Shown here one piece after another: positions 1,090 to 57,234 of a stretch of DNA of 64,000 bases. The DNA lies in NCBI GenBank assembly GCA_964440975.1, contig CAYYKI010000001.1, positions 2,591-66,590 on the forward strand, in the 5' to 3' direction. This stretch comes from an uncultured Candidatus Saccharibacteria bacterium. Its GTDB lineage: Bacteria > Patescibacteriota > Saccharimonadia > Saccharimonadales > CAZNVG01. Under the pieces are notes generated by a model that did no database searches, was not told where the DNA came from, and saw only the letters and a list, made by a program, of their open reading frames with translations. The position numbers were made by a program, and so were the translations under genes. The first letter of the stretch is position 1. Every line of letters starts with the position of its first letter.

Positions 1090-4000
1090 TTAGCGTATTG
1101 CCACAGCACCCGATTCTGAACTTAGGCGTTTGAACAGCACATATCGTTTGCCATTGAAGACTCTGGCAAAGCCAGAACGGAGCACTTCTTCACGAGGAAT
1201 CATTGCGACACCACCATAAGTTGCTTTCAAGTCATCCATTCGCCGTAGCACTGCTTGCTCTTCTGCGAGGATTGTCTGGTCGTCTTCATTAAATACTGTT
1301 TCAACGACGTGCTCGCCAATCTCAAAAGCAACAGCCATCTTGCGTGAATCACGTAGTGACTCCTTGGTCTTCTTGAACTTGAGTGATTTAATGCCCGCAG
1401 CGCCAATTAAGCCTGCTAATTCAGGAGCAGACTTCTCGCAGTCGCGCACTTTCTCCAATACGATTACTTGGCTTCTAAAGTTTGAGCCACTCAACGCTAT
1501 GCCACTACGATCATCGATTACAAAACCAAGTTCATCCATAGACTTTACAAAGGTTTCGGAATCTTCAAGGTCGAGCGAGTAAATCATATCGACGACTGCC
1601 TTGCCGCCAGGCTTTAACACCCGGTTTAGCTCGCGTAAGACCTGCAGGCGCTCAACATTTTTTCTGCTCGGAACGAAGCTTGTGTAGTGCAGACCAAGCG
1701 ATAGGTTTACATAATCCATTGAGCCGTCTTGTGCCGGCAAGTTTGTGAAGCTACCCACAATTTGCTGAACGCCAGCCTTAGCAAAGTGCTTTGGATTGAT
1801 ATCGACACTTACGACTGCTTCTGCTAGTTCTTCAGAAATATGCCGCTTCAACATTTCTGGACCAGACGCCACATCGAGTACTCGCAAGTTTTTCGCATCT
1901 TGCTTTCGCTCAGCTACAAACGCGTGGATCAATGTGCCCGATAGCCGTGCGACGTTCGCCTGGTAGCTCCGTGCACCAACCAAGTTTGCGTAACTCTCCG
2001 CATACTCTTGGTCGTACTGTACCAAGAACTTTTTAAAGTCTTCTTCGCCGAGCTCTTTAACGTGTCCGTAAATGCGCATCATCTTATCCCACGACGAGAA
2101 GTAATACTCTGCAAGCTCTGAGTTAACCTCTAAGTTTGGATCGACCTGTTTTTCAGCCTGACGCAACATCTCTCGTTCAATTTCTGAGATTGGCACGCCG
2201 CGCAGTAGCTTTTGCACCGCTTGGTACTTAGTCTGAATATACCGATGAATTCCGTCTTCGATAGTGCCAGCTGCGACAAAGGTTCGTACAATTAGATCTT
2301 GCTTCAAGCCAGGACGATACACGCGAGATCGCTGCTGGTGTTTGTCATAGACCGTCCATGGTTCGTTGTAGAAGTAGACTTCTTCGGCTGCAGAGAAGTC
2401 GACCCCAACGTCAGCCGTTTGGCCACTCACGACCAATAGAACTTTTTGATTGGTCTGGCGGAGCTCGTTTTGAATTTCCAAACGGCGTTCCTTTTTAATT
2501 GAACCATCGACGGTAAAGACCTGCACATCCCTAGGGATATCGAGTGTGTCGAGAATGTGATTGTCGCCGCGCATCACACCGTCGATGTAGTCATTCACGA
2601 ACATAACAACCTTGTCTTTTACGGCAAAGGTCTGGTGAAGAGCTGCACTAACGGCGAATTGCTTGGATCCTTCAATGTTTGGTGTGGCATCAAACATCTG
2701 CGGGTTTAACGTAAACTGGCGAAGAATTCTAAGTTTGTCCATCGGGCTTAACTCGTCTTCTTCAACAAGTAAACTATAGACTTCTTGCTCCTCAGGAGTT
2801 AGCTCAAAGCGCACAACTTCTTCACGTATAGCTGGCATATTGATACTTTCGGCAAGTTCTTTTTGTTGCATGCGAGGTACGAGCAGGCTACGTAGATCAA
2901 GGATATCGCCATTGATGATTTGATTAACCAGCTCTTTGTTTTCGATATCCGCAAATTGTTCTGGGTAGAGTAATTTTAGTGACAATGCAACGTCGCTAAT
3001 AGTGTTTGGTACTGGCGTGCCAGAGAGCATCACGAGATATTTGTCATCTCCGGAAACTTGCTCGGCCAACTCCAACAGATACTCCGAACGCACGCCAGTT
3101 TTGAGGTTTTTAAGCTTGTGGACTTCGTCCGTGATGAGCATGTCGAAGGGCAGTTGCTTCAGCAGCGGCGTGTAAATACCGTTCAGTCTTTCTTGAGAAA
3201 TCACTACATAGTCGTAATCGTTTGGTTCAACATCAGTAAGGTCTTCTGGACTCCCAACAATCAAAACTCGAGGTTCTTGTCCCGGCTTAAAGTAGCCTTT
3301 TTGTTTGCCTTTATCATCAACTTCGCTAGACAAAAAATCCTGCCAAACTTCGACTACATTGCTCGGCACAATAACCAATGCTTGCTGCACACCAAGAATT
3401 TCTTTAGCCATGATAGCCGAGGCACTCTTGCCCAAACCCATCTCGTCAGCGATCAGCATGCGATGCTTGAAGGCAATTTCTTGGACGTTAATACGTTGGT
3501 TAATATCGGGGAAGAGACGGTCATCGCCAAGCGAGTCGACAAGATGGTCTGGTTTGTGAATATTCTCAAAGATCAGCTTGTAGTAAGCTTCAGCCTCGTC
3601 AAGCACTGACTCGAGTTCTGGCGTTATAAAGTCCGCTGTTTCTGCGCGGATGTGTGCGATATAGTCAGCGACCAGCGCAGCACTTGCGTCATCTGGTTCA
3701 AGTTGCCCGGCATCATGCAATGCCCGCAAACAGTCCGCCTTAACAATCTCAGTTAGCCCATCCCGAAAGACCGTTTCGGCTAAGAGTCCGATGCCTTTCT
3801 CAAGCCCTTCAAGAGAGAATTGACCGCGCACAATAAGGTACTCACCCAAATAATCCGTAAGCGCACTTTTAACGTAGGGGACTGGTAACTTTCGATACTC
3901 AGGGTGTTGCTGGTACAAAATGTCTACGGCGTAATCAGAACCAAACAGGCTTACGAGCGATTCGAAATCCTGAGCCTCAATAGACTCGCCTTCGCCTATT

Positions 4001-5232
4001 TCAATAATGAAGTTCTTTAGGTTATTTTGAAGTTTAATTTGTTCAGGATGAACTCCATTATTTGCTTTAATCTCGCGATAGATGTGTATTTGAGCCTTAA
4101 CTCTTTCAGATGATTCTTTGTATAGGTACGTTACTCGATTACCATTTGACGCCCTAAAGACTCCAAAGCAACCATTAGAAAGCGCTCCGACTTCTCCTGC
4201 TATCCGTTCAACATATTTTCTATTAGCACTGATCTCCTCAGCAATCGCTCTAATACTCTGTGCGCCTTCAGGCGGTCTTCCACCTTCAAGTAATCCATTT
4301 ACTCTTACTTCAATTGCTGCAACATAATCATCATAAATGTGCTCGCGCACAATTCCGTTTCCGCATCTATGGTACCCCATACTTTCTTGGTATTGCGGCC
4401 GGAGCTCTTCTATGATTGCATCTACCGTATAGTCATCAATTCCAAATTTGACTGCCAGTCCATGCCGGGTATAAGAACCCTTCGGCGCAGGAACTGACCT
4501 GCCTCTCTCTTCCTTGATTGCTGCAACAAGCTCTGGTTGATAGTAATCTGATACTCTTCCCGTGGAACCTTTTTGGGCTACAACTTGCCCCGGATACCTC
4601 TGAGCTAACGACGCTGCTATTGCTGTTATAGTTTCCTGACTAGCACCAAGCTCTTTTGCAAGAGCTTTATTACTGGCTGCACCTTCGGGTTTAGGCTGGT
4701 GTTTAGCATATTCAGCTGCAATCTTGCTAACCGAAGATGGATCAAAATGTAAGGCAGGGGTACTTGTGGATGTTCCTTTTAGCTCACTTGTTAGCTCCTG
4801 CTCCTCGGCTTCTAACCTACTGATTAATCTTTTAATCGTTGCTACGTCAGTTCCAACTTGACTAGCGATGGAGCTAGCGGTAAGCCATCCTACTTTCGGT
4901 CTGCCTCTATTGGATAAAGCTAGTTTTATTCTCCCTGTAAGCTCTGGTTCATAGTGCTCAGCCCACTTTTTATTATCAAGCCTCAATCTTACAATTGAAT
5001 CCGGAATATCTTCGGCTAGAGTCCTTGCTGTTTTCTTTACCAGACCGACGCTAACCTCGAGTTCTCTTGCAAGGTTAACTGCTGCTGAAGGAAGTTCAGG
5101 CTCTAAATTCCCATTCCCGTTCTCGGTTTGACCACTATACTTACCCTTCTCTTCCTGAGACACATCTAAACTACATACGGAGATGCCAGACTGCGACTCA
5201 AACTTTCCAGCTTCCGGTACGATCTCACTCAT
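1090..5232 (-). CDS. SNF2-family helicase with C-terminal SAM-dependent methyltransferase-like domain and N-terminal tandem HTH-like repeats (1380 aa)
   Basis: SNF2_N motifs: LIADEMGLGKSASAIMAKEIL (motif I) and MLITDEVHKLKN (DExH box). Helicase C-domain: VLLVVSGQTADVGVDFSAAEEVYFYNEPW...QQRSRVYRPG. C-terminal class I methyltransferase motifs: VLDVASGPE (motif I) ... VDIN ... LKPGGKAVV. The N-terminal ~500 aa contain about five repeats of a ~60-aa module ([IL]A.E[LIV]G.....[IV]..[IL]...[LV], plus recurring (H/D)Y.PEL). Confidence 0.7.
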   Translation of the reverse strand: MSEIVPEAGKFESQSGISVCSLDVSQEEKGKYSGQTENGNGNLEPELPSAAVNLARELEVSVGLVKKTARTLAEDIPDSIVRLRLDNKKWAEHYEPELTGRIKLALSNRGRPKVGWLTASSIASQVGTDVATIKRLISRLEAEEQELTSELKGTSTSTPALHFDPSSVSKIAAEYAKHQPKPEGAASNKALAKELGASQETITAIAASLAQRYPGQVVAQKGSTGRVSDYYQPELVAAIKEERGRSVPAPKGSYTRHGLAVKFGIDDYTVDAIIEELRPQYQESMGYHRCGNGIVREHIYDDYVAAIEVRVNGLLEGGRPPEGAQSIRAIAEEISANRKYVERIAGEVGALSNGCFGVFRASNGNRVTYLYKESSERVKAQIHIYREIKANNGVHPEQIKLQNNLKNFIIEIGEGESIEAQDFESLVSLFGSDYAVDILYQQHPEYRKLPVPYVKSALTDYLGEYLIVRGQFSLEGLEKGIGLLAETVFRDGLTEIVKADCLRALHDAGQLEPDDASAALVADYIAHIRAETADFITPELESVLDEAEAYYKLIFENIHKPDHLVDSLGDDRLFPDINQRINVQEIAFKHRMLIADEMGLGKSASAIMAKEILGVQQALVIVPSNVVEVWQDFLSSEVDDKGKQKGYFKPGQEPRVLIVGSPEDLTDVEPNDYDYVVISQERLNGIYTPLLKQLPFDMLITDEVHKLKNLKTGVRSEYLLELAEQVSGDDKYLVMLSGTPVPNTISDVALSLKLLYPEQFADIENKELVNQIINGDILDLRSLLVPRMQQKELAESINMPAIREEVVRFELTPEEQEVYSLLVEEDELSPMDKLRILRQFTLNPQMFDATPNIEGSKQFAVSAALHQTFAVKDKVVMFVNDYIDGVMRGDNHILDTLDIPRDVQVFTVDGSIKKERRLEIQNELRQTNQKVLLVVSGQTADVGVDFSAAEEVYFYNEPWTVYDKHQQRSRVYRPGLKQDLIVRTFVAAGTIEDGIHRYIQTKYQAVQKLLRGVPISEIEREMLRQAEKQVDPNLEVNSELAEYYFSSWDKMMRIYGHVKELGEEDFKKFLVQYDQEYAESYANLVGARSYQANVARLSGTLIHAFVAERKQDAKNLRVLDVASGPEMLKRHISEELAEAVVSVDINPKHFAKAGVQQIVGSFTNLPAQDGSMDYVNLSLGLHYTSFVPSRKNVERLQVLRELNRVLKPGGKAVVDMIYSLDLEDSETFVKSMDELGFVIDDRSGIALSGSNFRSQVIVLEKVRDCEKSAPELAGLIGAAGIKSLKFKKTKESLRDSRKMAVAFEIGEHVVETVFNEDDQTILAEEQAVLRRMDDLKATYGGVAMIPREEVLRSGFARVFNGKRYVLFKRLSSESGAVAIR

Positions 5233-5259: not shown

Positions 5260-5312
5260 CTTTGTAAAACTTGGCTCCGGGGAAAGGATTCGAACCTTCG
5301 ACCTAGTGGTTA

Positions 5313-5870
5313 CACTTAATCACTGCTTTCACAGCGTGTGGACTATCTCATCTTGCTTATCAAAAATGATCTGCAAGCAGGGCGCTTATGAGAGATTATT
5401 GTTAGGCTCACTCTCTAGTCTCTGAACCTTCCTGAGTCTCTTAACCTAACTCAGGCTTGGCTGCGGATTACCATATCGTACGACGTAGGCTTCCCGACAA
5501 TTCACCCTGTTTTCACTATGGGATTACTCACCATAGGCTGCACTTTTACTAACCCTGCATGAATTTCTCTATGACAATTTGCGCATACAAGTATGCATTT
5601 ATCTGCTTCTGCCCTGACTTTTTCCCAAGAACGAGTAAGCCCTTTCGACGAAATTCCAAACTCTTTCTGAGATGCATCTATGTGATGAAGATCAAGCGCA
5701 TCAACACAATTGCTATAGCCACATTTCACGCACTGACCGCCTTTATACTCAACAAGCTTTCTGCGAACTGCCTTTCGACGTTTCGCAACTGCCATCTTGA
5801 GATAATCGGCACGATCAGCATAGGTTCGACGATCCGGCATACAACCTAGTGTATACCATTTGGTGTTCGT
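5313..5870 (-). mobile_element. group I self-splicing intron (558 bp) inserted between tRNA-Asn positions 35 and 36, carrying an HNH ORF
   Basis: The 5' exon ends in U (U35) and the intron ends in G (omegaG, complement of 5313). The intron 3' part, minus-strand sense, contains the conserved group I core elements: P-like ATTGTCGGGAAGCC directly after the ORF stop, Q-like AATCCGCAGCC, R-like GGTTCAGAGACTAGA, S-like AAGATGAGATAGTCC (P7 pairing GACTA/TAGTC). Confidence 0.8.
5502..5840 (-). CDS. HNH homing endonuclease (intron-encoded, 112 aa)
   Basis: CxxC...LHHID...CANCHREIH, i.e. the HNH motif with zinc-binding Cys pairs. The ORF starts 30 nt into the intron and ends one nucleotide before the P element. 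Confidence 0.75.
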   Translation of the reverse strand: MPDRRTYADRADYLKMAVAKRRKAVRRKLVEYKGGQCVKCGYSNCVDALDLHHIDASQKEFGISSKGLTRSWEKVRAEADKCILVCANCHREIHAGLVKVQPMVSNPIVKTG

Positions 5871-5904
5871 ACAGCCACCCGCTCTACCGCTGAGCTACCC
5901 CGGA

Positions 5905-5960
5905 ATGTATATAAAAGGTGCGATCACCACAGGTAATACAGGGGTAGATTATAGTTTGAA
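5905..5960 (-). promoter_or_regulatory. possible promoter for the tRNA-Asn gene
   Basis: Minus-strand sense upstream of tRNA nt 1: TTACCT-19nt-TATACA ending about 6 nt before +1. A perfect TATAAT lies further upstream. Weak, sequence-gazing only. Confidence 0.2.
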
Positions 5961-5990
5961 TGGAGTAGTTGGTCAAATAATATTGCCCTG

Positions 5991-11028: not shown

Positions 11029-11254
11029 ACTAGTTATGATTATAAACTAGCTGGATACCTGTAATGTAAATACTTTTGGATCGATAATAAGTTTGACAAG
11101 CAGTGAGTACGATTCTAAGGGCGATAGCCGAAGCCATCACATGCCTGCATAAACGGAACCCGTAGGGGTCCACCAGTAGCCGAAGCCGCTGATGGACCCC
11201 ATGGGCCCGGTCCCGTCGGATCTCAGTTGTTGTGCGCGGTTCTACCGCCGTCGA

Positions 11255-12049
11255 TCAGGACGTGGAGGCCGCCGTCTCGCTGGAGGCGTCGGGGTCGAGA
11301 CCCTCGCTGCCGCCGCTGGAGGCGCCCGCTCCCGACCACCAGTCGTCGCCGTTGGACGTGTCGGGGTCGAGACCACCGCCGCTGCTGCCGCTGCCACCGT
11401 CGGTCGATGCCGTCGTCTGCTGACGCGAGCCGGGGGAACCCCAGCCGTCGTCGAAGCTGCCGAAGACGGGCTGCCTGGAGGAGCCGAAGGGCCTGCCGAA
11501 GCCGCCGATGACGCGCAGGCCACCGATGTCGCCGGACAGGTTCCCGAAGAGGGCGCCACCGAACAGCTGCTCGAGGTTGAGAGAACCGCTGGCCTGCTGC
11601 AACTCGCCGAGGTAGTCGGTCAGGACCGGCTTGTACAGCCAGCTGGTGACCACGTCGACGACACCCTTGCCGACGATGCCCGGGAGGGCACGTCGGATGA
11701 CCTCCGCCGGCAGCGGCAGGTGCACCGTGGCGGTGATGGTGAGCGAGAGGCTGACGTCGTCGATCTCGGCGTTGAGGGTCGACACGATCTCGCCGGACGA
11801 ACCGTCGGTGGACGCGTCGTAGCCCTTCATCGCGCTGAACACGGAGTCGAGGCCGCGCGGGACAGCGGTGTTGAGGTTCTTGACGAGACGCTGCTGCGCC
11901 GTGTCGGCGATGGCGGCGAGCGTCTCGTCGTCCATCGATCCGGAGACGATGGTGGCAGGGTCGTAGGTCAGCTCGAGGACGGTGTTGATGGACGCGTGCG
12001 TGAACGAGACGTACGCCGCACGTGTGATCTGATGTCGATTGGACTGCAT
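11255..12049 (-). CDS. hypothetical protein encoded in a ~70% GC patch (264 aa; Gly/Ser/Asp-rich C-terminus)
   Basis: ORF with extreme GC3: nearly every codon ends in G/C (atg cag tcc aat cga cat cag atc ...). AGGAG sits about 11 nt upstream of the ATG. The overlapping plus-strand ORFs are Arg-rich antisense shadows. Confidence 0.5.
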   Translation of the reverse strand: MQSNRHQITRAAYVSFTHASINTVLELTYDPATIVSGSMDDETLAAIADTAQQRLVKNLNTAVPRGLDSVFSAMKGYDASTDGSSGEIVSTLNAEIDDVSLSLTITATVHLPLPAEVIRRALPGIVGKGVVDVVTSWLYKPVLTDYLGELQQASGSLNLEQLFGGALFGNLSGDIGGLRVIGGFGRPFGSSRQPVFGSFDDGWGSPGSRQQTTASTDGGSGSSGGGLDPDTSNGDDWWSGAGASSGGSEGLDPDASSETAASTS

Positions 12050-12360
12050 CGGAATGCTTTCTCCTCGCTATGGCAGGGTTGCCTAGCTCCCATTCATTAG
12101 GGGGCTATATGTGTACTCTTGACACACAAAGTGAGGACCAAACCCAGCTTCACCGAGCTTAGTTCTCACCTCGTGTATCTAAACTGCTTGTCAAGGAGCT
12201 TTGGAGCAAAATGCGCCAGTATATACACCGGCTGCAAACTCCGCTCAACAAAACTTTGCAAATTATAGTGTTTTTATTGCATATTGTCAATAGCTTTATG
12301 ACTGCAACCTTGTTTACTGTTATATGTTGTTTTAAACGCAAGACGGTATACTATTTTTAG

Positions 12361-39998: not shown

Positions 39999-40011
39999 GT
40001 ATGTCAGCGGT

Positions 40012-40149
40012 TTAGTGGCTAAGACGCACGCGGCCTTTTAGGCGACGAGCTTTCAGCACCGCACGACCACCAGCGCTAGCCATTCGAGCACGAAAACCAT
40101 GTTCGCGCTTTCGTTGTTTAACTTTTGGTTGATACGTTCGTTTCGGCAT
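40012..40149 (-). CDS. rpmH: 50S ribosomal protein L34
   Basis: Minus-strand translation [45 protein letters not shown] is essentially the L34 consensus (45 aa). It is below the ORF-track size cutoff. Confidence 0.85.
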
Positions 40150-40225
40150 TGCGATAATCCTACCAGATAATTACCCCTAAAATCAAGCCACTCGACTACG
40201 GCTAAACAACATTGTCAAGAGTAAG

Positions 40226-40255
40226 TTATCCACACAACCCCTACTGTTATCCACA
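40226..40255 (+). promoter_or_regulatory. two perfect DnaA boxes (TTATCCACA) upstream of dnaA
   Basis: TTATCCACA at 40226-40234 and 40247-40255, same orientation, 21 bp apart. A weaker ACTATCCAT lies about 30 bp downstream. Confidence 0.6.
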
Positions 40256-40443
40256 GTTTAACAGGGGTGGGCTTGTTTTGTGCATAACTATCCATCTGTT
40301 GGACTTTGCGGCAAAAATCATGAAAAATCATGTGGAAAAGTAATACAATAGTCAGGTACTATAGGGGTACTAAGTCAGGAGGGTTAGTCACCAAGCCTCA
40401 TACGCAGTGGTGATTGGCAGGGTATAAAACATGGGGTTTCTTT

Positions 40444-41808
40444 ATGGTAGATAAGGTCTGGCAGACCGTTTTGGGAGAGATAGAACTTTCCGTTTCTAAG
40501 GGCAGTTTTATCACGTGGTTTAAAAACACCACGTTGCTAGACCACGACAACTCGACGGTGATAATCGGGGTACCCAATATTTTTGCCAAACAACAGTTGG
40601 AGGTTAAGTTTAACAGCCTCGTGTCGGATGTTCTGAAGCGCAACGGACTGCCAGCAAAGAACATTCAATATAAGATTCACTCGTCCTTAACCACCAAACG
40701 CGCCACACCGCGTGAAGGTCTACTGTCTGCCGTCAATAATCACGCCAACAAAGAACCCGCTCGAGCGACAATAACTACATCATCTCGGCAACCGATACGC
40801 CAAGGCTTGAACGAAAAATATTCTTTCGAGTCTTTCATTGTGGGATCGGGTAATGAGCTGGCATATGCAGCATGCCAGGCAATCGTTAAGTCGCCAGGTG
40901 AAAAATATAACCCGTTGTTTGTCTATGGTGGGGTAGGGCTTGGTAAGACCCATCTCATCCAGGCAGTAGGCAACGCGATAGCTGCCAACAACCCGAGCCT
41001 TAAGGTGTTGTACGTCACAAGCGAGACCTTTGTGCAGGAGTTCTTGGATGCAATTCGTTCCAAGAAGCCTTTTTCGGACAGATATCGCCGAACAGACGTT
41101 TTGATAATCGACGACATGCAATTCATCGCCGGAAAGGAAAAAACCCAAGAAGAGTTCTTCCACACATTCAACGCATTGCACCAGGCAAACAAACAAATCA
41201 TTATCAGTAGCGACAAGCCCCCGAAATCAATCCCAACACTAGAGGAACGACTACGATCGCGCTTTGAATGGGGCATGACTATTGATATCCAAGCGCCTGA
41301 CTTTGAAACACGCTGTGCAATCCTACAGACAAAAGCCACTAGCCACAATGTAACTCTGGAGCAGGGGGTAGTTGAGTACCTAGCGACACATATTCAGACG
41401 AATATTCGTGAGCTGGAAGGTGGCCTTAATCAACTCTTGGCTTTCTGTGAAATGCGGGGGATTGAACCAGACCTAGAAACGGCCACAGAATTAATGAGCA
41501 ATGTCCGAACCCGACCCAAGCATGTCACTCCAAAACAGATCATAGAGCGAACAGCCAGGCACTTCCAGATTGAGCTAAACGACTTGGTGGGCCCAAAGAG
41601 AGATAAAGACATCGTGGTACCACGCCAGATAGCCATGTACTTACTCCGCAGCGAGCTACACCTAAGTTTTCCCAAGGTGGCTCGTGAACTAGGGAGGAAG
41701 GATCATACCACCGCGATTCATTCTATTGATAAAATCGAGCGCGCCTTACGACAGGATCAAATCACTCGTGAGCACGTCAATCAAATTAAGGACCGCTTGT
41801 ATGCATAG
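40444..41808 (+). CDS. dnaA: chromosomal replication initiator protein DnaA
   Basis: AAA+ Walker A GGVGLGKTHL and Walker B VLIIDDMQF; the sensor and C-terminal DNA-binding helix-turn-helix are present. Start chosen at MVDKVWQTVL (40444), the conserved DnaA N-terminus. Confidence 0.9.
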   Translation: MVDKVWQTVLGEIELSVSKGSFITWFKNTTLLDHDNSTVIIGVPNIFAKQQLEVKFNSLVSDVLKRNGLPAKNIQYKIHSSLTTKRATPREGLLSAVNNHANKEPARATITTSSRQPIRQGLNEKYSFESFIVGSGNELAYAACQAIVKSPGEKYNPLFVYGGVGLGKTHLIQAVGNAIAANNPSLKVLYVTSETFVQEFLDAIRSKKPFSDRYRRTDVLIIDDMQFIAGKEKTQEEFFHTFNALHQANKQIIISSDKPPKSIPTLEERLRSRFEWGMTIDIQAPDFETRCAILQTKATSHNVTLEQGVVEYLATHIQTNIRELEGGLNQLLAFCEMRGIEPDLETATELMSNVRTRPKHVTPKQIIERTARHFQIELNDLVGPKRDKDIVVPRQIAMYLLRSELHLSFPKVARELGRKDHTTAIHSIDKIERALRQDQITREHVNQIKDRLYA

Positions 41809-42165
41809 CTCCCCTACCTTGTTTTATCCACAATTTGACTTAGGCGCTATTTTAGTTCAATACAATAGTATTTTTAACCTAAATGTTTTACAATGTATTG
41901 AAATATTTGCAAGTGGTATAAAATGTGTACAACTGAATGATTTCAGTGAGGAAAACCTGTTCAAACCCCCTACCCTTACCCACAGGACTGTACAAATAAT
42001 CAGCACAAGACGTTTTAATACTCATGTTCTACACAATAGCTATCAACAGCTAGCGACACATATCCACGCCCACTTCACGGCTCTACTCGATAGCGTTTCA
42101 CGGCTTTACACACTATCCACAGTGCCTATTACTACTACTAATTATATAAAGAGAAGGGATTAAGG
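41809..42165 (+). promoter_or_regulatory. dnaA-dnaN intergenic oriC candidate with DnaA boxes and AT-rich unwinding element
   Basis: TTATCCACA at 41824-41832, CTATCCACA at 42113-42121, ATATCCACG at ~42060. A strongly AT-rich stretch at ~41840-41960 is a DUE candidate. Confidence 0.6.
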
Positions 42166-43266
42166 ATGAAGTTAGCAGTAACGCAAGAGAATCTTTCCAA
42201 GGGTCTAGGCCTTGTAAGTCGCGTAGCCGGAGGCAGCCGAACATCCTTACCGGTACTCCAGAATGTATTAATAGCAACCGACGGCAACTCGCTTCGTCTC
42301 GCCGCAACCAACCTGGAGATTGCTATTAGACTGACTATCGGTGCAAAGGTTGAACAACAAGGAACCATTACTGTACCAGCGCGATTAGCGCAGGATTTTG
42401 TGGCTTCACTCCCGGCTGGCCCTATCAACCTCAAGCTAGATGGGACGCGTCTTGATGTTGTGACCGATAACTATAAGTCGGTGCTTAATGGTGTACCAGC
42501 CGACGAGTTCCCTGCTATTCCAGAGGTGGGTAGCGACAAACAGCTGACTATCGACGCAGCTACCCTCAAGGATGCGATTAGTCAGGTGGTAATCGCCGCT
42601 TCGCACGATGAGACGCGTCCGGTATTAACTGGTGTGTGGCTGCATAGCTACGAAAAAAACTTATACATGGTAGCTACCGATAGTTACCGGCTAGCTGAAC
42701 GCAAACTGGGCCCGACTGAAGAGGAAATCAACCTGTTAGTACCAGTTAACGCTATGCAAGACGTTCTTCGTATCCTTGGTGATGCAGAAGAAGAAGTAGT
42801 TATAGCTTACGACGAGCAACAGGTCTGCTTTAGGATTGGGCAGATTGAGCTCACTAGTCGTCTTATTGACGGCAAGTACCCCGACTATCGACAGCTTATC
42901 CCCAAGAAAACGAGCCTGTCAGCCAGCTTAAGTCGACAAGATCTCATAAATATAACTAAGGTGTCGAGTTTGTTTGCTCGAGAATCAGCCGGGAGTGTTA
43001 CGTTGGAGCTAAACGAGGGAGATCAGTCGCTAAGTATTCGTTCGGTTGCCAGCCAAGTTGGTGAAAACACCGCCAAAGCTAATGCGTTAGTTGAAGGTGA
43101 CCTCGAAGTGGCGCTTAACTCTCGCTATTTACTCGACGCGCTTGGCGTTATCGACGAAGCTGAGGTTGTCTTTGCATGTGACGGCAAAACTAACCCATGT
43201 ATTCTTCGCCCAGGCGGCAAAAAGCCAACCGCGTACACCCATATCATCATGCCGCTGCGTAGTTAG
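42166..43266 (+). CDS. dnaN: DNA polymerase III beta sliding clamp
   Basis: 366 aa with the three-domain clamp pattern, beginning MKLAVTQENLSKGL...LPVLQNVLI. Position directly after dnaA. Confidence 0.9.
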   Translation: MKLAVTQENLSKGLGLVSRVAGGSRTSLPVLQNVLIATDGNSLRLAATNLEIAIRLTIGAKVEQQGTITVPARLAQDFVASLPAGPINLKLDGTRLDVVTDNYKSVLNGVPADEFPAIPEVGSDKQLTIDAATLKDAISQVVIAASHDETRPVLTGVWLHSYEKNLYMVATDSYRLAERKLGPTEEEINLLVPVNAMQDVLRILGDAEEEVVIAYDEQQVCFRIGQIELTSRLIDGKYPDYRQLIPKKTSLSASLSRQDLINITKVSSLFARESAGSVTLELNEGDQSLSIRSVASQVGENTAKANALVEGDLEVALNSRYLLDALGVIDEAEVVFACDGKTNPCILRPGGKKPTAYTHIIMPLRS

Positions 43267-45058: not shown

Positions 45059-46444
45059 CTACTCTTCTGGCGCAGGCAAAAGTGGGCTGTTGTATTCGAA
45101 GTGGTAGTCCAGGAGATTGATATCGATATCGGCCTCGCGAAGTTGCTTGAATACTTTTTCCCTCGCTTGGTCGCTATCCTCGAACATGGTGATATTCAAC
45201 ACGCCAAGTGAGGAAACCTCGTATGTATATGTTCCGTCGTCCTTATCTTCTATAGACTTGAGCTTGCTTTCCATATCGGTTGGTACTTTGACAGTATCCT
45301 TACTCAAGATATCTATGGTGCGCGCGTTGGTTAGCACAAAAAGTCGGCCGTTTTCAGTCGTCATGGAAAGTGGCTGTTCACGATATCCCTTGTCGGTTTT
45401 TGATTGGGTGTTTGGTAGTATTCGCGTAAAGCTTTTCGTATCAACGTTCGCCTGCACGAGTGAATACGGTCGATCCTTGCTTGTAAAGTCGCTTCCAAAA
45501 ATGTAGAGGATGTTATTGTGCCAGGCCAAGCTGGCTTCGCTTGAGAAACCACCGTCGCGTAATACCGTCTTTTTTGAGTTTAGGTCTAATATGGTGAGTT
45601 TTGCTTCAGCTTCACCGTCACCCTCTCCACTGCCTTGTGCTTGCAAATACGCCGAGTGCTTGCCGTCATTTGAAACATAGATGGTTTCTGCCGCATCATC
45701 ACTCTGTGATACGGTCTTGGTTTCAACGTCGATCAGGTTTAGTACCCCAACCGCGTCAGCATCTCTCTTTATATCCGCCATGACGTAGAGAGTATTATCC
45801 GTAGCAACCACTGTTTGCGCGGCGCCTGCAACCTCGTAGCTGTCAGCCTGCCTCAAGTCTTCGCCTATCCCCACTACGGAGCTGGTATCGCCGCTGTCTG
45901 CCTCCGCCCCCTCTTCCGTGTCAGCTTCGAAGGGACTGGTAGTTACATAGAAAGGATACTTCTTATTGCCCGTGAAGCACTGTTCAAGATCGGTACCTAT
46001 AAAGCTAAAGGCTTTTGTTTGCAAGTCAAAACCCCACCAGTATTCATCATCGAGTGATTGGTTCTGAGCGACAATTATCTTGCCAAGGTCATCGTCTTCC
46101 AAATACCCTTTAGCTCTAAACACAACCTTGTTGCGTTGCTTGTTCCAGCACATTCGCTCGATAATTGGCAGTTTAAACGTCGGAGTGGTAGCGGTAGTGG
46201 CACCGGTTGCAAGATCTAATTCTGAAAAGTTTTTACCGTTAAACAACGACAGCTTCTTGCCGTCTTCACTAGACACAGCCTTTACGTCACCGCTGGTTAT
46301 GCCACTATAAATTTGCAGAGTTTCGGTGTTGTACGTTGGCCCTCGACGCGTCAGCATAAATACAACCAGCAGCACTGCCGTGGCAATCGCGCCAATGATG
46401 AAAAGTTTTTTCTTGTTGTTTTTTGGTGTGACTGTTGGGTCCAT
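45059..46444 (-). CDS. membrane-anchored extracytoplasmic beta-rich protein, last gene of the T4SS-like operon
   Basis: N-terminal TM helix LFIIGAIATAVLLVVFML. The remainder has alternating beta-strand-like segments and acidic patches. Confidence 0.45.
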   Translation of the reverse strand: MDPTVTPKNNKKKLFIIGAIATAVLLVVFMLTRRGPTYNTETLQIYSGITSGDVKAVSSEDGKKLSLFNGKNFSELDLATGATTATTPTFKLPIIERMCWNKQRNKVVFRAKGYLEDDDLGKIIVAQNQSLDDEYWWGFDLQTKAFSFIGTDLEQCFTGNKKYPFYVTTSPFEADTEEGAEADSGDTSSVVGIGEDLRQADSYEVAGAAQTVVATDNTLYVMADIKRDADAVGVLNLIDVETKTVSQSDDAAETIYVSNDGKHSAYLQAQGSGEGDGEAEAKLTILDLNSKKTVLRDGGFSSEASLAWHNNILYIFGSDFTSKDRPYSLVQANVDTKSFTRILPNTQSKTDKGYREQPLSMTTENGRLFVLTNARTIDILSKDTVKVPTDMESKLKSIEDKDDGTYTYEVSSLGVLNITMFEDSDQAREKVFKQLREADIDINLLDYHFEYNSPLLPAPEE

Positions 46445-46446
46445 GG

Positions 46447-47877
46447 CTACTCCGGTACGGATTTATATGCTTCTCTGAGGAATGGTTGTACGGTAATGAA
46501 TCTACCCGGATAATCTTTGAGACACTCGTTGGCAGAACAGCTTGGGCGAGAGGCGCCGTTGGTCATGTCAAAGTGTAGGTGTGCTTCTGTTCCGTTAGCA
46601 TTTTTGCTTTCGCCGCTATGGCCCAGTAGTTGCCCAGCAGTTATGGTATCGCCGACATGTACCACATTGCCGTCCTTAGGCATGTGGGTGTAGTAATAGT
46701 TGATGCCATCATCTCCCTTTATTTGCACATTTCGTCCGAATTTATCAGAGTACCCTGTCCGTACTACCTTACCGGGTCGCGAGGCTACTATAGGAGTGCC
46801 CGGGGGCGTAAAGATGTCAGCGGCATTGTAATGGTGGTGGCAATTGGTGTTATTATTTTCGCACCACTGATCTGGTTTTTGAGAACGTATAATCGACTTT
46901 TTTACTTGTAGTGGGAACACAAAACCACTGGCACTTACTGCGACTTGTGGCACTGTTCCGGGGGTGCACTGCTCGCTAGCCGGGGCCGCTGGGCCATCCG
47001 GTGCCGGAGATATGCCGCCTGGAATAGCATCGGCCTCATAGACGGTACCAGACTCGACTGACTGATCTGGCGCCCAGCGATACTGTAAGTCGTCACCCTG
47101 TGAGTTGCGCCTACCGCCAGACGGCCCACCGTATTGCCATTGGGCTGCATCAATAGCCTTCATTGCAGCGGGCGCCAATCCAGCAACCCGTCCATCATAT
47201 TCGGCGGGAGTTCCTTCGACATATCCCGACCAATAGCTCGGTACACTACCCCTAGAGTTGCTTTTAGTGCCCGTCCATGGTGCGGGTCCAGTTTCTATAA
47301 GGGCCGTAACCACTGCCTTCTTGGTGCGCGGGTTAATGACTAGTATTTTGCGTAGTGCGCTGTAGTACCAGCCTTTGGTGTCTTTTTCGGAGCCATTTAC
47401 TTTGCTACTACCGTCCCATTTCCAGGTGAACGGTCGCGTACGCATGTTGGAATAAAACTTTACATCAATTGGTTTAAGGATATTTTTCATAGAACCACCA
47501 ACAGCGAGAGATGGCTGGCCGGCGATATGAAGGAGTCGCACTACCCCATTTGAGTCAATAAATGCTTCACTCTCTTGCCCCGTTCCACCATGGGTTGCCG
47601 GCAGCTTATGCCCCTCAAGGGTGTCTGAGCCACCAGCTGGTATGGGCCCGGCAGGAGTGGTTGTCGTTGTGGTGGTAGGCGTGGCTGGGCAGGTGATGCC
47701 GTAGTCGCACGCATCTAGCACGTCAACATTATTTTTGCGGAGGGCTGCTTCCCGGCCTGGTGAACAGTCCTTACCGATCTTAGCGTGTACCGGTTTAGGG
47801 ACAAATGCCAACATTACAGACAGCATAAATATAGACACGGTGACAATAGCCTGTATACGATGCAGCAGCTTAGTCAT
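46447..47877 (-). CDS. secreted M23 (LytM) family peptidase
   Basis: Signal peptide. C-terminal M23 motifs HHHYNAADI (HxxxD) ... GHSGESKNANGTEAHLHFD (HxH). Confidence 0.75.
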   Translation of the reverse strand: MTKLLHRIQAIVTVSIFMLSVMLAFVPKPVHAKIGKDCSPGREAALRKNNVDVLDACDYGITCPATPTTTTTTTPAGPIPAGGSDTLEGHKLPATHGGTGQESEAFIDSNGVVRLLHIAGQPSLAVGGSMKNILKPIDVKFYSNMRTRPFTWKWDGSSKVNGSEKDTKGWYYSALRKILVINPRTKKAVVTALIETGPAPWTGTKSNSRGSVPSYWSGYVEGTPAEYDGRVAGLAPAAMKAIDAAQWQYGGPSGGRRNSQGDDLQYRWAPDQSVESGTVYEADAIPGGISPAPDGPAAPASEQCTPGTVPQVAVSASGFVFPLQVKKSIIRSQKPDQWCENNNTNCHHHYNAADIFTPPGTPIVASRPGKVVRTGYSDKFGRNVQIKGDDGINYYYTHMPKDGNVVHVGDTITAGQLLGHSGESKNANGTEAHLHFDMTNGASRPSCSANECLKDYPGRFITVQPFLREAYKSVPE

Positions 47878-50800
47878 TTGGACACCCCGCTAGGATTCGA
47901 GGACCCTTAACCGACACGTGAATATGATTGGCATGGTCTCTGAGTGTCCCTGAGCCATAGCTATGTGGCTCGCCCTGTTTAAGGTTAGATGTGCCCGGGG
48001 GTGGATTGGAGTAAATCAACTCGTTAATGTTGAGCGCAGCACGGTTGTTATACAGATACGGCATAAGCTGCGGCGCAACAGACTCGTTACCGATATCAAT
48101 AGCATATCCTCCGTAATGGTTTGAGGTGACCTTTGTTTGTCGTGTGCAGGGATTGTGTCCTGTTTGGATAACTGACGGCTCAAGGGTAACTTTAGCCTGC
48201 TCTAGCATGGCTACTATCAGCTGAACCAAACCATCCTTAGCCACGCCATTTTGGATATCAACGGTTGGCCTATTGGTCTGCGGTTTCCAGCCAGGATTGT
48301 TGAAAATACGGTTTACCAATTGAGCCCTCTCTCCTGCAGGTAGTGTGCCGCCGGGAGTTGGGCCGGTTTCTCCAGTAATTGCCTGGGCGACAACGTCATT
48401 GACGATTAGCTGGGCAAGAATGGTATAGCAGTTGGCTCCTGGGTGGACACCCGCAGCCTCTGTAATACATGCTGACCTGTTAATGCGGCCGTCATCAAAG
48501 TAGGCCTTAAGATCAATTATCTTAAAGTTCTTAGCGATAGCCTGCAGCTTAAGAATGTTGTTATAGGTATCATACTTTGCCTGGCCAGCTCCGCCAGAAT
48601 AGATATTTACAAAATATATTGAGATATTTGGGTTTGCCGCGCGCGCTTTATCCACTGCCTCGACAATTTTTGCACCATAACCGTCTGGCGTCTCCAGTGC
48701 ATTAGTACCGAGCGCAATAACGAGTGTACCTGCTCGAGCAATCTCGGCAGTGTGTGCGTCGATTTGTTGAACGCCCCAAGTCAGGGCCTGGCCACCAACA
48801 GCATTAATGGTTGATGTCCAGCCGGCGGCTTGGAATTTATCGGTAATTTTTACATTGTTATATCCAACAGTAAGTGAATCCCCAATCATATAAACCGACT
48901 TATTCACCGCAGCGGGGCTAGGTGTTGGGGCTATCGGCTCGTCATCTGATGTGTCGCTCAGATCACCAGTAATATTGTCAGAGATTGAGGTGCTGAGGTC
49001 TAGGTCCATTACATATACACGCATACGATTCTTTTCCTCGCTATTGTCCTTGCATTCGGTGCGTTCACCAAAATCACCCGTATCGGTAGAGCTATTATAT
49101 TCAACATCTACCGGGTCAATACAGCTCTTTTTGAATTTATCAAACTCACTATCGGGCACTGGCTTGCCGGCTTCGTCTACGTAGTTCTGGTCCATCATCC
49201 AGCGTTCATTTTCGCCAGGATCTATAGTCTCGGTAACGTTATCTGGTAGGCCCATTATCGGGTTTCCAAAGGCATCGTGGGCAATTTCGTCGGGGTCTTC
49301 TGCAGCAAAGGCCTTATTGGTGGTTACATCGAGTACTGATCCGAACATGGCAGGTATGCCGGCAAAACTCATGCTCCCAATTGCTCCAACGTTCGCAAGT
49401 TGACTATATCCAGAAATCAAGCTAGTTGAGGCCAGTGAAGTGGGATTGCCGAGGCTAATGTAGCGTTCAAACAGACTTTGCTTGGCGAGTTCGGTGCGGC
49501 GGGTTTCGTCCACCTCTTGTTGCAGCGCAAATACTTGGCGATTTTTAAGCGGTTTCATGCCCATACTATGTCCACGCATTTGCGACATGGCTCCCGCTCC
49601 CGATACTAAGGCTGCTGCCAGGTTGTCACCACTTTCGTCACCAGTTATGACGGCCCCTGCCAAGGTTCGGGCCAAGATTGGAAGTAGCACGGCTTTTGCG
49701 ATTTCTAGGGTTGCTGAAATAGCACCTGCGCTTGCTGCACTGGCTGCAACTGCTGTCGCGGTAAGTGTTCCTCCGGTAGCAATACCGCCTCCAATCCTGA
49801 CGACGACTAACTCGGTTGCGCTGGTTGCGATTTGGAAGATTGGATTTCCAGCCACCTTACAAATACCTTTAGTTGGCAGATAATGATCTGCGGCATCCAG
49901 GAACGATCCAAGGTCGCCACCGATTTTTCCATCAACCGAATATCGATTACGCTCCCTGCCAACTACTCCCGGGTTCTTTCGTTTGTTGCTCACATAATTC
50001 CAGGAGCCCGAACTATAGAATGATTTGCCTGTCGACTTGTTTAGAGTGTGGGCCAGGGCCATAAAGCCCGCCATGTCCTGACCGTCGATATCACCATCTT
50101 TAACTGAATCAGCCATAACAAATATAGCCGTAGCAAATTTCGCTAGCTGCATTGCGCGCATCACCCGGCTCGCACCACGAACTGCTTGGGCAAAGGCATA
50201 GGCCTGACAGCTATAGTCGGCAACGGCTGCAAAGCCTCCAATTGCGCCTTTAGCTGCACCTTCTGCACCCTCTTTTACGGTCTTGCCGGCAATATCTGCA
50301 GCTTCACTTTCAATCCGCTCTAAGGACTCTTCACCAACATCCCCCGCAATGCGCCCGGCTGGATCAGCATCAACTTGCTCTGCGATTTCATCCGCAAGCT
50401 TGTTCGCATCATCTAATTCACTAGCAGCCTGGTCGATGTCTGCATCGGCTCGCTCGCGTTCTGGGTCTGGCGATTCTGGGTCATCTGGCCCCGGATCTGT
50501 CTTGGCCTCCCCTTTGCCTTTAGCGGTAACATCATAGCCCGGGATCAATCCCATAAGCGCACCGCGCATCTTAGCTTTAAATTTTTCCCTAAAGTTAAAT
50601 TTGCGTCCTAGTTTTTCACGTAGCTCCAACTCTTTCCGCTCGAGCCAGTCAACTACCCGATTGTCCCTGATCCAGTTTTTGCGGATTAAACCATATCGCT
50701 TGAATACAGCTCGCGCTTTACGTCCGCGCCAAAAAGCACTCCTCCCAGAGTGCCGTTCTGCGATTGCCTCTTTGATCGCTGAGCGTCGTTTCCAGATTGA

Positions 50801-51529
50801 TTCAAACTGATCTGCTGTATTGATACGGGTACCATCTGGCCCTATCAGCTCAGAGAGTGTTCCTCGATTTGTGTTCATCTTAAAGTCGTAGCCATTTGCG
50901 CGCATATCGGCAACAAACTTATCTGACTGGATGTTTTTATAAATTGAAGTTAACTTACCACGTGACTTATACCCATCAAATTCCCCCTCGTGGAAGAAAA
51001 ACCCTCTCGAAAACACCTTACCTGACCGTGTCGTTACTACTTGGGACTGTATGCCCCCGTATTCGCGAAGCATTATTTCTTTAATATGTACCAGCTCAAA
51101 AGCCGGCATAAAGATTGATCCGGCGATAGTTAGGCCAAGGGCAGCAAGCGAACCAAACCCGGCAATCATGAGGGCGCGTTTTCGGTTTCTTAGGGTGGTT
51201 CCTAGGCCACCGCCCTTCTTTTTACGCCCAAGTAGCCGTTTTTTCCCGTCATCCTTTTTATCAAAGTCACCTTCTTTATAAAGGAGGTTCGGGTCACGCT
51301 CTTCCTCGTCCTTTTTATCCTTTTTGCCCTTTTTCGGGCCGGAGCCGTCGGTTTCTTTAGCAGCTAACTCATCGTGGGCATCGCTTTGTTCTTCGTCGCT
51401 GTCGGCATAGTAGCCAGAATCTCCTTGTTCTAGCAGGGCATTTGCTTCGTCGTCATCCATGCCTCCAGAATCTTGGTTGGCGATTGGTCGTGTTTCTTCT
51501 CGTTCTTTATCGTATACGTCATTTGGCAT
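47870..51529 (-). CDS. giant membrane-anchored multi-domain cell-wall hydrolase candidate (1219 aa): SGNH/GDSL hydrolase plus LAS (M15-like) metallopeptidase domains
   Basis: Charged N-terminal tail, one TM helix (ALMIAGFGSLAALGLTIAGSIF), and an Ala/Gly-rich central region. MIGDSLTVGYNN is a GDSL-like motif. C-terminal SNHYGGYAIDIG ... DHANHIHVSV is the LAS-family HxxxxxxD ... HxH zinc site. Confidence 0.55.
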   Translation of the reverse strand: MPNDVYDKEREETRPIANQDSGGMDDDEANALLEQGDSGYYADSDEEQSDAHDELAAKETDGSGPKKGKKDKKDEEERDPNLLYKEGDFDKKDDGKKRLLGRKKKGGGLGTTLRNRKRALMIAGFGSLAALGLTIAGSIFMPAFELVHIKEIMLREYGGIQSQVVTTRSGKVFSRGFFFHEGEFDGYKSRGKLTSIYKNIQSDKFVADMRANGYDFKMNTNRGTLSELIGPDGTRINTADQFESIWKRRSAIKEAIAERHSGRSAFWRGRKARAVFKRYGLIRKNWIRDNRVVDWLERKELELREKLGRKFNFREKFKAKMRGALMGLIPGYDVTAKGKGEAKTDPGPDDPESPDPERERADADIDQAASELDDANKLADEIAEQVDADPAGRIAGDVGEESLERIESEAADIAGKTVKEGAEGAAKGAIGGFAAVADYSCQAYAFAQAVRGASRVMRAMQLAKFATAIFVMADSVKDGDIDGQDMAGFMALAHTLNKSTGKSFYSSGSWNYVSNKRKNPGVVGRERNRYSVDGKIGGDLGSFLDAADHYLPTKGICKVAGNPIFQIATSATELVVVRIGGGIATGGTLTATAVAASAASAGAISATLEIAKAVLLPILARTLAGAVITGDESGDNLAAALVSGAGAMSQMRGHSMGMKPLKNRQVFALQQEVDETRRTELAKQSLFERYISLGNPTSLASTSLISGYSQLANVGAIGSMSFAGIPAMFGSVLDVTTNKAFAAEDPDEIAHDAFGNPIMGLPDNVTETIDPGENERWMMDQNYVDEAGKPVPDSEFDKFKKSCIDPVDVEYNSSTDTGDFGERTECKDNSEEKNRMRVYVMDLDLSTSISDNITGDLSDTSDDEPIAPTPSPAAVNKSVYMIGDSLTVGYNNVKITDKFQAAGWTSTINAVGGQALTWGVQQIDAHTAEIARAGTLVIALGTNALETPDGYGAKIVEAVDKARAANPNISIYFVNIYSGGAGQAKYDTYNNILKLQAIAKNFKIIDLKAYFDDGRINRSACITEAAGVHPGANCYTILAQLIVNDVVAQAITGETGPTPGGTLPAGERAQLVNRIFNNPGWKPQTNRPTVDIQNGVAKDGLVQLIVAMLEQAKVTLEPSVIQTGHNPCTRQTKVTSNHYGGYAIDIGNESVAPQLMPYLYNNRAALNINELIYSNPPPGTSNLKQGEPHSYGSGTLRDHANHIHVSVKGPRILAGCPND

Positions 51530-51531
51530 GG

Positions 51532-54497: not shown

Positions 54498-54550
54498 AAA
54501 AGTTTTACGCGAACAACTGATGACCAGATGGTGGCGAACCCTCCGAGCGA

Positions 54551-55591: not shown

Positions 55592-55634
55592 GGTCGACTA
55601 AAGTATACCGTATGTGGCTAAATGGGGCCTAGTT

Positions 55635-57179: not shown

Positions 57180-57234
57180 AACTAAAACATTAGCATAAAT
57201 AACTGTTTAAGTCAATATTATGTTAATGCAAGTA

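Follow-up and report, generated by a model that had tools for sequence, protein, structure and literature searches.

A probable self-splicing group I intron with an HNH endonuclease gene in a tRNA-Asn gene of a Saccharimonadia chromosome

Introduction

Group I introns interrupt tRNA genes in bacteria, and a few of them carry genes for homing endonucleases. Here we describe such an element in a 64,000-nucleotide stretch of DNA from an uncultured Candidatus Saccharibacteria bacterium (assembly GCA_964440975.1, contig CAYYKI010000001.1), which we call the window, meaning the whole stretch that was analysed. We conclude that a chromosomal tRNA-Asn(GUU) gene of Saccharimonadia is very probably split between U35 and U36 by an IA-like, self-splicing group I intron that holds an HNH endonuclease gene. 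The conclusion draws on the anatomy of the locus, on its homology to an intron that has been proven to self-splice, on covarying helices, on an intact endonuclease motif, and on a presence/absence polymorphism among relatives, all of which are direct observations.

Introns at this position have been described before. Williams 2020 (bioRxiv 10.1101/2020.01.27.920355) raised the count of group I intron types in tRNAs from 4 to 21; according to PMC13011429, which cites this work, tRNA-Asn introns at 35/36 were already in that catalogue as 'Asn.4Ug'. Nakagawa et al. 2026 (PMC13011429) reported 15 tRNA-Asn 35/36 introns in 95 complete genomes of Patescibacteria, classed them as IA, demonstrated self-splicing in vitro and, for GCA_016700035.1, sequenced the ligated tRNA at 35/36. 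Four of their introns encode HNH endonucleases (GCA_000503835.1, GCA_001029735.1, GCA_016699425.1 and GCA_023898525.1). The 35/36 class covers tRNA-Asn or tRNA-Asp of Patescibacteria, and the authors expected further introns of this type to turn up in draft genomes (PMC13011429). A tRNA-Asn group I intron at 35/36 is ordinary for the phylum. An earlier reading of the window, made from its letters only and called here the sequence-only reading, had presented an ORF-bearing intron at this place as unusual; with a catalogue entry from 2020 and with self-splicing and four HNH examples from 2026 (PMC13011429), that view does not stand.

Results

The tRNA-Asn gene

Both halves of the gene lie on the minus strand, as do all features of the locus given below, and were delimited with ARAGORN and by reading the sequence. 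The 5' exon (5871..5904; TCCGGGGTAGCTCAGCGGTAGAGCGGGTGGCTGT, read from 5904 to 5871, 34 nt) holds nucleotides 1-35 of the tRNA, that is, the 5' strand of the acceptor stem, the D arm, the 5' strand of the anticodon stem and C32 U33 G34 U35, and its last bases are GGCTGT. The 3' exon (5272..5312; TAACCACTAGGTCGAAGGTTCGAATCCTTTCCCCGGAGCCA, read from 5312 to 5272, 41 nt) begins with TAACC and supplies U36 A37 A38, the 3' strand of the anticodon stem, a 5-nt variable loop, the T arm, the 3' strand of the acceptor stem, the discriminator G73 at 5275 and, at its end, an encoded CCA. The gap between them (5870..5313) measures 558 nt, starts with ACGAAC and finishes with AAGTG. ARAGORN called the joined halves a 75-nt tRNA-Asn(gtt) with canonical arms, and every coordinate of the two halves, 558 bp apart, that the sequence-only reading had joined into a tRNA-Asn(GUU) holds.

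The same reading had proposed a tRNA finder that allows for introns. Run in intron mode on the genomic sequence, ARAGORN returned tRNA-Asn(gtt) with a 558-nt intron, i(35,558), as the sole tRNA of the 64-kb window, which agrees with the earlier remark that no other tRNA-Asn was visible. In default mode the program found no tRNA anywhere in the window, a false negative overturned by intron mode. The joined tRNA agrees with the tRNA-Asn of GCA_016700375.1 at 71 of 75 bases. Compared with the common Saccharimonadia allele, its T stem carries two compensatory double changes (GAAGG/CCUUU versus GCUGG/CCAGU), which argue for selection on the tRNA. About 45 nt upstream of the 5' end of the tRNA there is a sigma-70-like sequence (5948..5976; TTGACC, 17 nt, TATAAT) that matches the consensus at 11 of 12 positions and may act as a promoter; a search for an intrinsic terminator-like site 3' of the tRNA found none.

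The group I intron

The interrupting sequence (5313..5870, 558 nt, between U35 and U36) is recognised as an IA-like group I intron by Rfam model RF00028, by ARAGORN in intron mode (-i) and by homology. RF00028 (Intron_gpI), the one Rfam family above threshold in the window, matched 5560..5320 over its full model (1-253) at 76.5 bits (E = 1.1e-17), where the gathering threshold is 50 bits; this search of 5272-5904 had been suggested by the sequence-only reading, as had pairing the exon end with the intron to locate the guide. That pairing gives P1: GGCUGU (5876..5871) with the internal guide sequence (IGS) GCAGCC (5536..5541, read 5541..5536), six base pairs including a U35-G wobble at the splice site, identical to P1 of the GCA_016700035.1 homologue that was spliced in vitro. 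At the other end the final intron nucleotide, read from the sequence and in the ARAGORN call, is a G at 5313 (omega-G), followed by UAACC. An insertion after U35 that ends in G, as first described, is what these two boundaries show.

The IGS starts 329 nt after the 5' splice site, as against 5-47 nt in homologous ORF-less introns, which places the ORF within the P1 loop (L1, 5542..5870, 329 nt, defined by comparison with the ORF-less homologues), which holds most of the endonuclease gene. From IGS to omega-G the ribozyme part occupies 5541..5313, about 229 nt, rather than the 3' 190 nt to which the core had been assigned. Over this span identity is 84% with the tRNA-Asn intron of GCA_016700035.1 and 68-79% with nine further tRNA-Asn introns from the literature. 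All four strings that had been put forward as P, Q, R and S elements are present: ATTGTCGGGAA at 5501..5491, AATCCGCAGC at 5469..5460, GTTCAGAGACTA at 5427..5416 and AGATAGTCC at 5348..5340. As printed in Table S3 of PMC13011429, the intron of GCA_016700375.1 ends with gataagca before TAACC, that is, in an A and not in omega-G, which may be an oddity of the boundary or of the sequence.

Covariation was assessed in an alignment of the window intron with ten published ORF-less tRNA-Asn introns (11 sequences). Standard pairs form in 91.3% of the cells, and 36 of the 53 pairs have changed on both sides; 0 of 500 shuffles reached these values, and when the 3' partners were slid by 1-3 columns pairing fell to 33-44%. 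RNAalifold independently recovered P2, P3, P4 and P6/P6a. Directly after the IGS and inside the ORF comes P2 (5517..5535), a hairpin of 7 bp with one bulged U and a GUAA loop, six of whose seven pairs show compensatory changes. The 5' strand of P3, CAGGGUG (5503..5509), is paired through the alignment with CGCCCUG (5378..5384), with 98.7% of cells paired and three compensatory pairs. The P4-P5 domain (5462..5499), which contains the P and Q elements, consists of P4 (5499..5493 with 5467..5462; 100% paired, 5/6 pairs compensatory) and P5 (5489..5488 with 5472..5471). It is followed by P6 (5461..5459 with 5428..5426) and P6a (5455..5449 with 5437..5431), together 5426..5461, where all seven P6a pairs covary and P6 is invariant. 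The R element contributes the 5' strand of P7, GACUA (5416..5420), which pairs with UAGUC of the S element (5341..5345; placed by the RF00028 match and the alignment) in a pseudoknot with P3, and which is invariant in 11/11 sequences. P8 (5352..5377; CUUGC...GCAAG with an inner AUCA/UGAU stem) covaries in 5/5 outer pairs, and P9 (5321..5336; CGCUGU-GAAA-GCAGUG) in 5/6 pairs, with 70% of cells paired in this sequence-only alignment.

Between P7 and the 3' strand of P3 lies a further hairpin, GAGAG...CUCUC (5390..5415), which is an insertion relative to RF00028 and has compensatory changes in four of five pairs. A P7.1-type hairpin at this place is an extra element typical of subgroup IA. The hairpin of the window intron resembles P7.1 and fits the IA assignment that the published homologues were given (PMC13011429).

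The endonuclease gene

The ORF in the intron (5502..5840, read 5840..5502, 112 aa plus stop) is identified as a putative HNH homing-endonuclease gene by its motif, by PHROG families and by homology. Its product has the motif CxxCG..HH..CxxCHxExH at residues 37-94 (C37xxC40, H53H54, C86xxC89-H90-x-E-x-H94) and matches PHROG HNH-endonuclease families with E = 2.8e-28. Four published tRNA-Asn introns have a homing-endonuclease gene (HEG), and with the endonucleases of these the product shares 55-70% identity. Among the 120 closest homologue clusters, 105 keep the full motif.

A 112-aa HNH ORF had been placed in the 5' peripheral region of the intron, ending one base before P. The ORF itself was correctly read, but its place is the P1 loop, and its 3' end runs over the IGS, P2, J2/3 and P3. 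The stop codon TGA (5504..5502) directly abuts the P string, and its T and G are the final two bases of the 5' strand of P3. From 5541 to 5502 the final 13 codons of the ORF and its stop take in the IGS, which is read within the codons Val-Gln-Pro, as well as the whole of P2, J2/3 and the P3 5' strand. Because these last 40 nt of the ORF are at once IGS, P2 and the 5' strand of P3, translation and splicing should exclude each other. An ORF that overlaps the intron core is a known arrangement (PMC3984707), and in all four published HEG-bearing tRNA-Asn introns the reading frame likewise continues through the IGS. The IGS-encoded tail, '...Q[PL]', occurs in at least 101 of the 120 closest protein clusters at 90% identity, from which it follows that the intron-borne form of the endonuclease is abundant in public data.

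The 8-mer CACTAGGT is present twice at this locus, in L1 just 5' of the ORF start (5851..5844) and in the 3' exon (5308..5301); by our own estimate about 0.1 matches of this type are expected by chance, and no 8-mer match of this kind was seen in L1 of the closely related intron L006 described below. The repeat is weak evidence for invasion by the endonuclease gene at a target-like site, a signature of the Loizos type. In a blastn comparison with phage genomes, similarity was short, weak and confined to the HNH core, and the genes concerned were HNH genes of jumbo phages.

Relatives with and without the intron

One genome per species was scanned with a 28-nt stretch of the 5' exon, giving at least 120 loci. 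At least 110 of these are uninterrupted tRNA-Asn genes in which the stretch is identical, from Saccharimonadia and also from Verrucomicrobiota and other phyla, which answers the earlier suggestion to look for intron-less alleles in related genomes; in one of them, L098, GGGTGGCTGT is followed directly by TAACCACTAGG at the junction. At least ten loci carry an intron at 35/36, and all of these, among the matches listed, come from Saccharibacteria/Saccharimonadales or from bins named 'bacterium'. L006 has an intron of 544 nt with an intact endonuclease gene of 103 aa, 77% identical in amino acids to the window ORF. The L1 of L117 is 119 nt and that of L085 38 nt long, both without an ORF, and in the remaining seven intron-bearing loci among the matches listed L1 measures 5-9 nt. 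Both L117 and L085 have introns that begin ACGA(A/C)AC, like HEG-bearing introns, and their extended, ORF-less P1 loops are for this reason probably decayed endonuclease genes. An extended P1 loop of 33 nt without an ORF is also found in the published intron of GCA_016700375.1 (Table S3 of PMC13011429). Such a gradation, with the gene intact, reduced to a remnant or absent, would be expected if the endonuclease is gained, decays and is lost in cycles.

In metagenomes, wherever the endonuclease is at least 62% identical and the contig is long enough (8 loci), the ribozyme lies directly downstream of the gene. Four of the metagenome loci reach both exons, and in each ARAGORN found a tRNA-Asn with an intron of 546-570 nt.

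Free-standing relatives in phages

More distant homologues of the endonuclease (39-66% amino acid identity) are free-standing genes, nearly all of them within tRNA arrays on large viral contigs. We surveyed 71 non-redundant loci of this kind from metagenomes and from the viral contigs of IMG/VR (among L130-L222). A tRNA-Asn(gtt) gene adjoins the free-standing HNH gene in 48 of them, upstream in 36 and downstream in 19, and no other isoacceptor does so in more than six. The tRNA-Asn often abuts the stop codon of the HNH gene, as in L198 (1315-1791) and L149 (1408-2178). In two loci the neighbouring tRNA-Asn(gtt) is itself interrupted at 35/36 by an ORF-less intron of the window's family, with the HNH ORF outside: in L191 the tRNA spans about 1316-1585 (intron 196 nt; ORF 495-1325), and in L183 about 405-670 (intron 189 nt; ORF 710-1462). 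RF00028 stays below its gathering score for both of these introns. On sequence grounds their 'collaborative homing' layout appears to be intermediate between the free-standing and the intron-borne forms.

The tRNA(GUU) genes beside these phage HNH genes are often 83-92 nt long, with a long variable arm, a 3-bp D stem and G73 (for example L149 1249-1340, L133 790-879, L218 859-946 and L206 1029-1115). Several have the anticodon arm AGCAGACUGUUAAUCUGC, and so combine a class-II body with an Asn anticodon. We take this arm to be that of E. coli tRNA-Tyr with A36 changed to U.

Short insertions in phage tRNA-Asn genes

Beside some phage HNH genes there is a second tRNA-Asn-like gene with perfect stems and a short insertion between CTGT and TAA, that is, at 35/36. 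Four such loci (L198 1793-1918, L136 1820-1942, L152 1179-1329 and L153 1748-1893) were joined by 48 others among L223-L289, obtained from a pattern scan of viral contigs which returned 67 stretches, 48 of them giving tRNA-Asn(gtt) when the halves were joined; the same pattern with an Asp-type junction was found twice. The 52 loci hold 30 distinct insertions of 40-76 nt with no overall sequence in common. For the copies beside the phage HNH genes, the Rfam tRNA model extends across the insertion with scores of 47-56 bits, and none of the intron families gives a match. The insertions share a layout in which a closing stem of 4-7 bp is followed by a hairpin with a T-loop-like loop of 7 nt (TTCGATT, TTCAAAT, TGCAAAT) that ends 0-2 nt, or 4-6 nt in a few, before the 3' strand of the closing stem. 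This T-arm-like hairpin is present in 28 of the 30 distinct insertions, where shuffles gave 1.2 on average and 4 at most. Duplication of the host T arm was rejected as its source (stem identity is mostly 2-6/10 and the flanks are unrelated), and dependence on the HNH gene was likewise rejected, with a homologue within 1.5 kb in 9 of 48 loci. There is no other tRNA-Asn within 4 kb in 22 of 26 distinct insertion types.

At 40-76 nt these insertions are far too short for group I introns, and we found no description of them in the literature searched, the coverage of which was incomplete. The group I intron and the mini tRNA-like insertion may be two unrelated intervening sequences that have both colonised position 35/36 of tRNA-Asn. 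That the short insertion is removed from the RNA, which would make it a new kind of tRNA intron in bacteria or phages, one that probably depends on protein, is a tentative idea that we regard as rather doubtful.

Genomic context

The window contains dnaA (40414..41808) and dnaN (42166..43266), and the nearest named relatives of its DnaA are from Candidatus Saccharimonadales/Saccharibacteria, at 66-69% identity. One NCBI contig has on record both an identical DnaA and a protein identical to the product of the intron ORF. From these genes and relatives the window is read as Saccharimonadia chromosome near the replication origin, not as phage. Intergenic gaps of 415 and 357 nt precede dnaA and dnaN, respectively (window 39999-43266), and likely mark the origin region. 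There are also rfb, glycosyltransferase and O-antigen-ligase-like genes and a gene for a pilin-like N_methyl protein.

Next to the tRNA, beginning 40 nt downstream of it, is a gene on the minus strand (1090-5232) for a 1380-aa protein in which an SNF2-type helicase is fused to a class I methyltransferase domain at the C-terminus; its N-terminus bears HTH-like repeats. A LexA-like gene lies about 2.4 kb from the tRNA; synteny with L098 by way of this gene was considered and is not supported. At 11192-12100 the G+C content is 0.546, against about 0.45 in neighbouring DNA, and long ORFs of 302 aa (plus strand) and 264 aa (minus strand) overlap, neither with a Pfam match. A run of large minus-strand genes at about 45059-60291 makes up a cluster like that of a type IV secretion system (T4SS). 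Among their products are an M23 peptidase, a TraG/VirB4-like P-loop ATPase, a PrgI-family protein and a protein of 1219 aa that has a GDSL lipase domain, and several large ORFs of the run are without a Pfam match.

Discussion

From the parts described above we infer how the window copy would splice, what its endonuclease would do and where, and how translation and splicing would come into conflict. The split tRNA gene would probably be transcribed from its own promoter into a precursor of about 680 nt, in which the exon sequence GGCUGU would pair with the IGS GCAGCC 329 nt downstream and P1 would present U35. Exogenous guanosine would attack after U35, omega-G (5313) would next enter the G-binding site, and ligation of the exons would give back the anticodon loop CUGUUAA. 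If it behaves like other homing endonucleases encoded in introns, the HNH protein would cut intron-less tRNA-Asn genes near the junction of GGCUGU and UAACC, and repair from an intron-containing copy would insert the intron into the cut allele. A ribosome that reads the ORF to its end would undo the fold in the ribozyme's 5' part, and translation and splicing would then be exclusive on one RNA molecule.

Several points weigh against this reading. The Pfam model PF01844 scores the ORF at 14.7 bits, below its curated cutoff of 21.4, and the best match to a solved structure is the HNH domain of a group II intron maturase at E = 0.002, so that the HNH assignment rests on the PHROG families and the motif. 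The Shine-Dalgarno-like AGG before the ORF (5847..5845) is weak. P6 and P7 never vary in the alignment, and covariation neither supports nor contradicts them. No convincing P10 was found in the intron: the candidate GGUUA (5554..5550) is complementary to UAACC at the start of the 3' exon, but its place is inside the ORF, at a distance of 8 nt from the IGS. Splicing of the window copy is deduced from homology, and our view takes in 64 kb of the genome, elsewhere in which a second, uninterrupted tRNA-Asn could exist.

These last two points would suit a dead intron, the locus then being a tRNA gene that fails to splice while another tRNA-Asn elsewhere reads the Asn codons. We consider this quite improbable, since the intron has kept all its core helices intact, and likewise omega-G and the splice-site U-G pair, the differences from homologues are compensatory, the T stem too bears compensatory changes, and interrupted and uninterrupted copies for one anticodon rarely occur in the same genome (published survey, PMC13011429). 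An intron that splices but is immobile, passed on by vertical inheritance only, its ORF intact by chance or kept for a maturase or regulatory role, deserves more attention, though we judge it unlikely. Most tRNA introns are without endonuclease genes, and limited horizontal transfer was inferred by the authors of PMC13011429; cleavage by the protein is here a deduction, and its overlap with the ribozyme could constrain the ORF independently of nuclease activity. Against this, the catalytic and zinc-binding motif is complete and is kept in 105/120 close clusters, the intron-borne form is known from more than 100 distinct clusters at 90% identity, the gradient from intact to remnant to absent that close relatives show would be expected of a homing cycle, and free-standing relatives adjoin tRNA-Asn genes, which points to a DNA target in the tRNA-Asn gene.

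Two further alternatives concern the identity of the gene and of the DNA around it, and we give both very little credence. If both boundaries are moved by two bases (CU/GUACG...UUAAG/UGUAACC), the gene becomes a tRNA-Thr(UGU) with an intron at 33/34; the shifted join also has a seven-base anticodon loop and is called tRNA-Thr(tgt) by ARAGORN, and ARAGORN and tFind give a tRNA-Thr call for many homologous introns (Table 1 of PMC13011429). P1 pairing, identity elements and homology led us to reject this register. The partner of the IGS GCAGCC is GGCUGU, whose last base is U35, and no guide was seen for a splice after U33. U1-A72 and G73 fit tRNA-Asn, being what we take to be the pattern of E. 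coli tRNA-Asn. The 28-nt piece of the 5' half is identical to at least 110 uninterrupted tRNA-Asn genes, and a homologue 84% identical was found by sequencing to be spliced at 35/36 (PMC13011429). The region could also be a phage or another mobile element rather than chromosome, as the weak DNA similarity of the HNH core to jumbo-phage HNH genes and the T4SS-like cluster at 45-60 kb might suggest; but dnaA and dnaN share the window, the flanking genes are of cell-envelope and housekeeping type with no tRNA array, and the closest relatives of the intron are in chromosomal Saccharimonadia genes. We retain the reading of a self-splicing intron with an HNH endonuclease gene in a chromosomal tRNA-Asn gene as the highly likely one.

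The Bacillus phage SPO1 DNA-polymerase intron belongs to subgroup IA and encodes the HNH endonuclease I-HmuI. Phage IA introns like that of SPO1 have P7.1/P7.2-type additions, which the P7.1-like hairpin of the window intron may match, and, as in the window, an HNH gene in a peripheral loop; unlike the window intron, they interrupt phage protein genes and carry the ORF outside L1, and the likeness is one of description.

The window intron shows every tested feature of the published 35/36 class, and is of a known kind and of low surprise. With the tRNA-Asn introns of Patescibacteria in PMC13011429 it shares the host gene, the 35/36 site, the P1 pairing GGCUGU/GCAGCC, an IA-like core with an insert resembling P7.1, a ribozyme of 68-84% identity and the failure of standard annotation, and with the four HNH-bearing ones it shares an endonuclease gene in L1 that runs through the IGS, although the window ORF continues slightly further, to a stop inside P3. 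Those four belong to WWE3, UBA1384 and Paceibacteria, whereas the window is from Saccharimonadia, and none of the six Saccharimonadia tRNA-Asn introns of Table S3 in PMC13011429 has an endonuclease gene. The exact sequence of the window intron is absent from that table. The cyanobacterial and proteobacterial introns in tRNA-Leu(UAA) at 34/35, tRNA-fMet at 33/34, tRNA-Arg(CCU) at 36/37 and tRNA-Ile(CAU) resemble it in self-splicing, in a site in the anticodon loop and in that few have HEGs (PMC13011429). They are, however, mostly of subgroup IC3 and at other positions of the loop, and their endonucleases are PD-(D/E)XK proteins (I-Ssp6803I in tRNA-fMet) or LAGLIDADG proteins rather than HNH (PMC13011429).

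Homing endonucleases that stand free in the tRNA clusters of phages are known from T5 (F-TflI/II/IV) and from T4, where SegB, a GIY-YIG enzyme, has its preferred site within T2L's tRNA-Asn gene (PMC2330249). The distant homologues of the window endonuclease are likewise free-standing in tRNA arrays; the window gene differs from these systems in lying inside an intron on a bacterial chromosome, and SegB is of another nuclease family. The free-standing relatives go unmentioned in PMC13011429. 'Collaborative homing' is a known route to composite introns (PMC3984707), and the occurrence of the HNH gene as a free-standing gene, beside an intron and within an intron appears to fit this route. We lean towards the view that 35/36 of tRNA-Asn is the target that one HNH clade shares across phages and Patescibacteria, and that from this clade a free-standing, phage-type HNH gene invaded the P1 loop of the intron.

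For the organism, the practical consequence lies in annotation: standard tRNA finders miss the gene, the bacterium would be scored as being without tRNA-Asn and completeness estimates would suffer, a pitfall described in PMC13011429. For the family, the window adds an example from Saccharimonadia in which the endonuclease gene is still intact. Two things are new in comparison with the published survey of complete genomes, namely the series of intact, remnant and missing endonuclease genes among alleles with an identical exon, and the tie of one endonuclease clade to tRNA-Asn genes in each of its three settings, as a free-standing gene in phage-like tRNA arrays, next to an intron without an ORF, and in the intron. 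The origin of the composite mobile intron thereby becomes testable.

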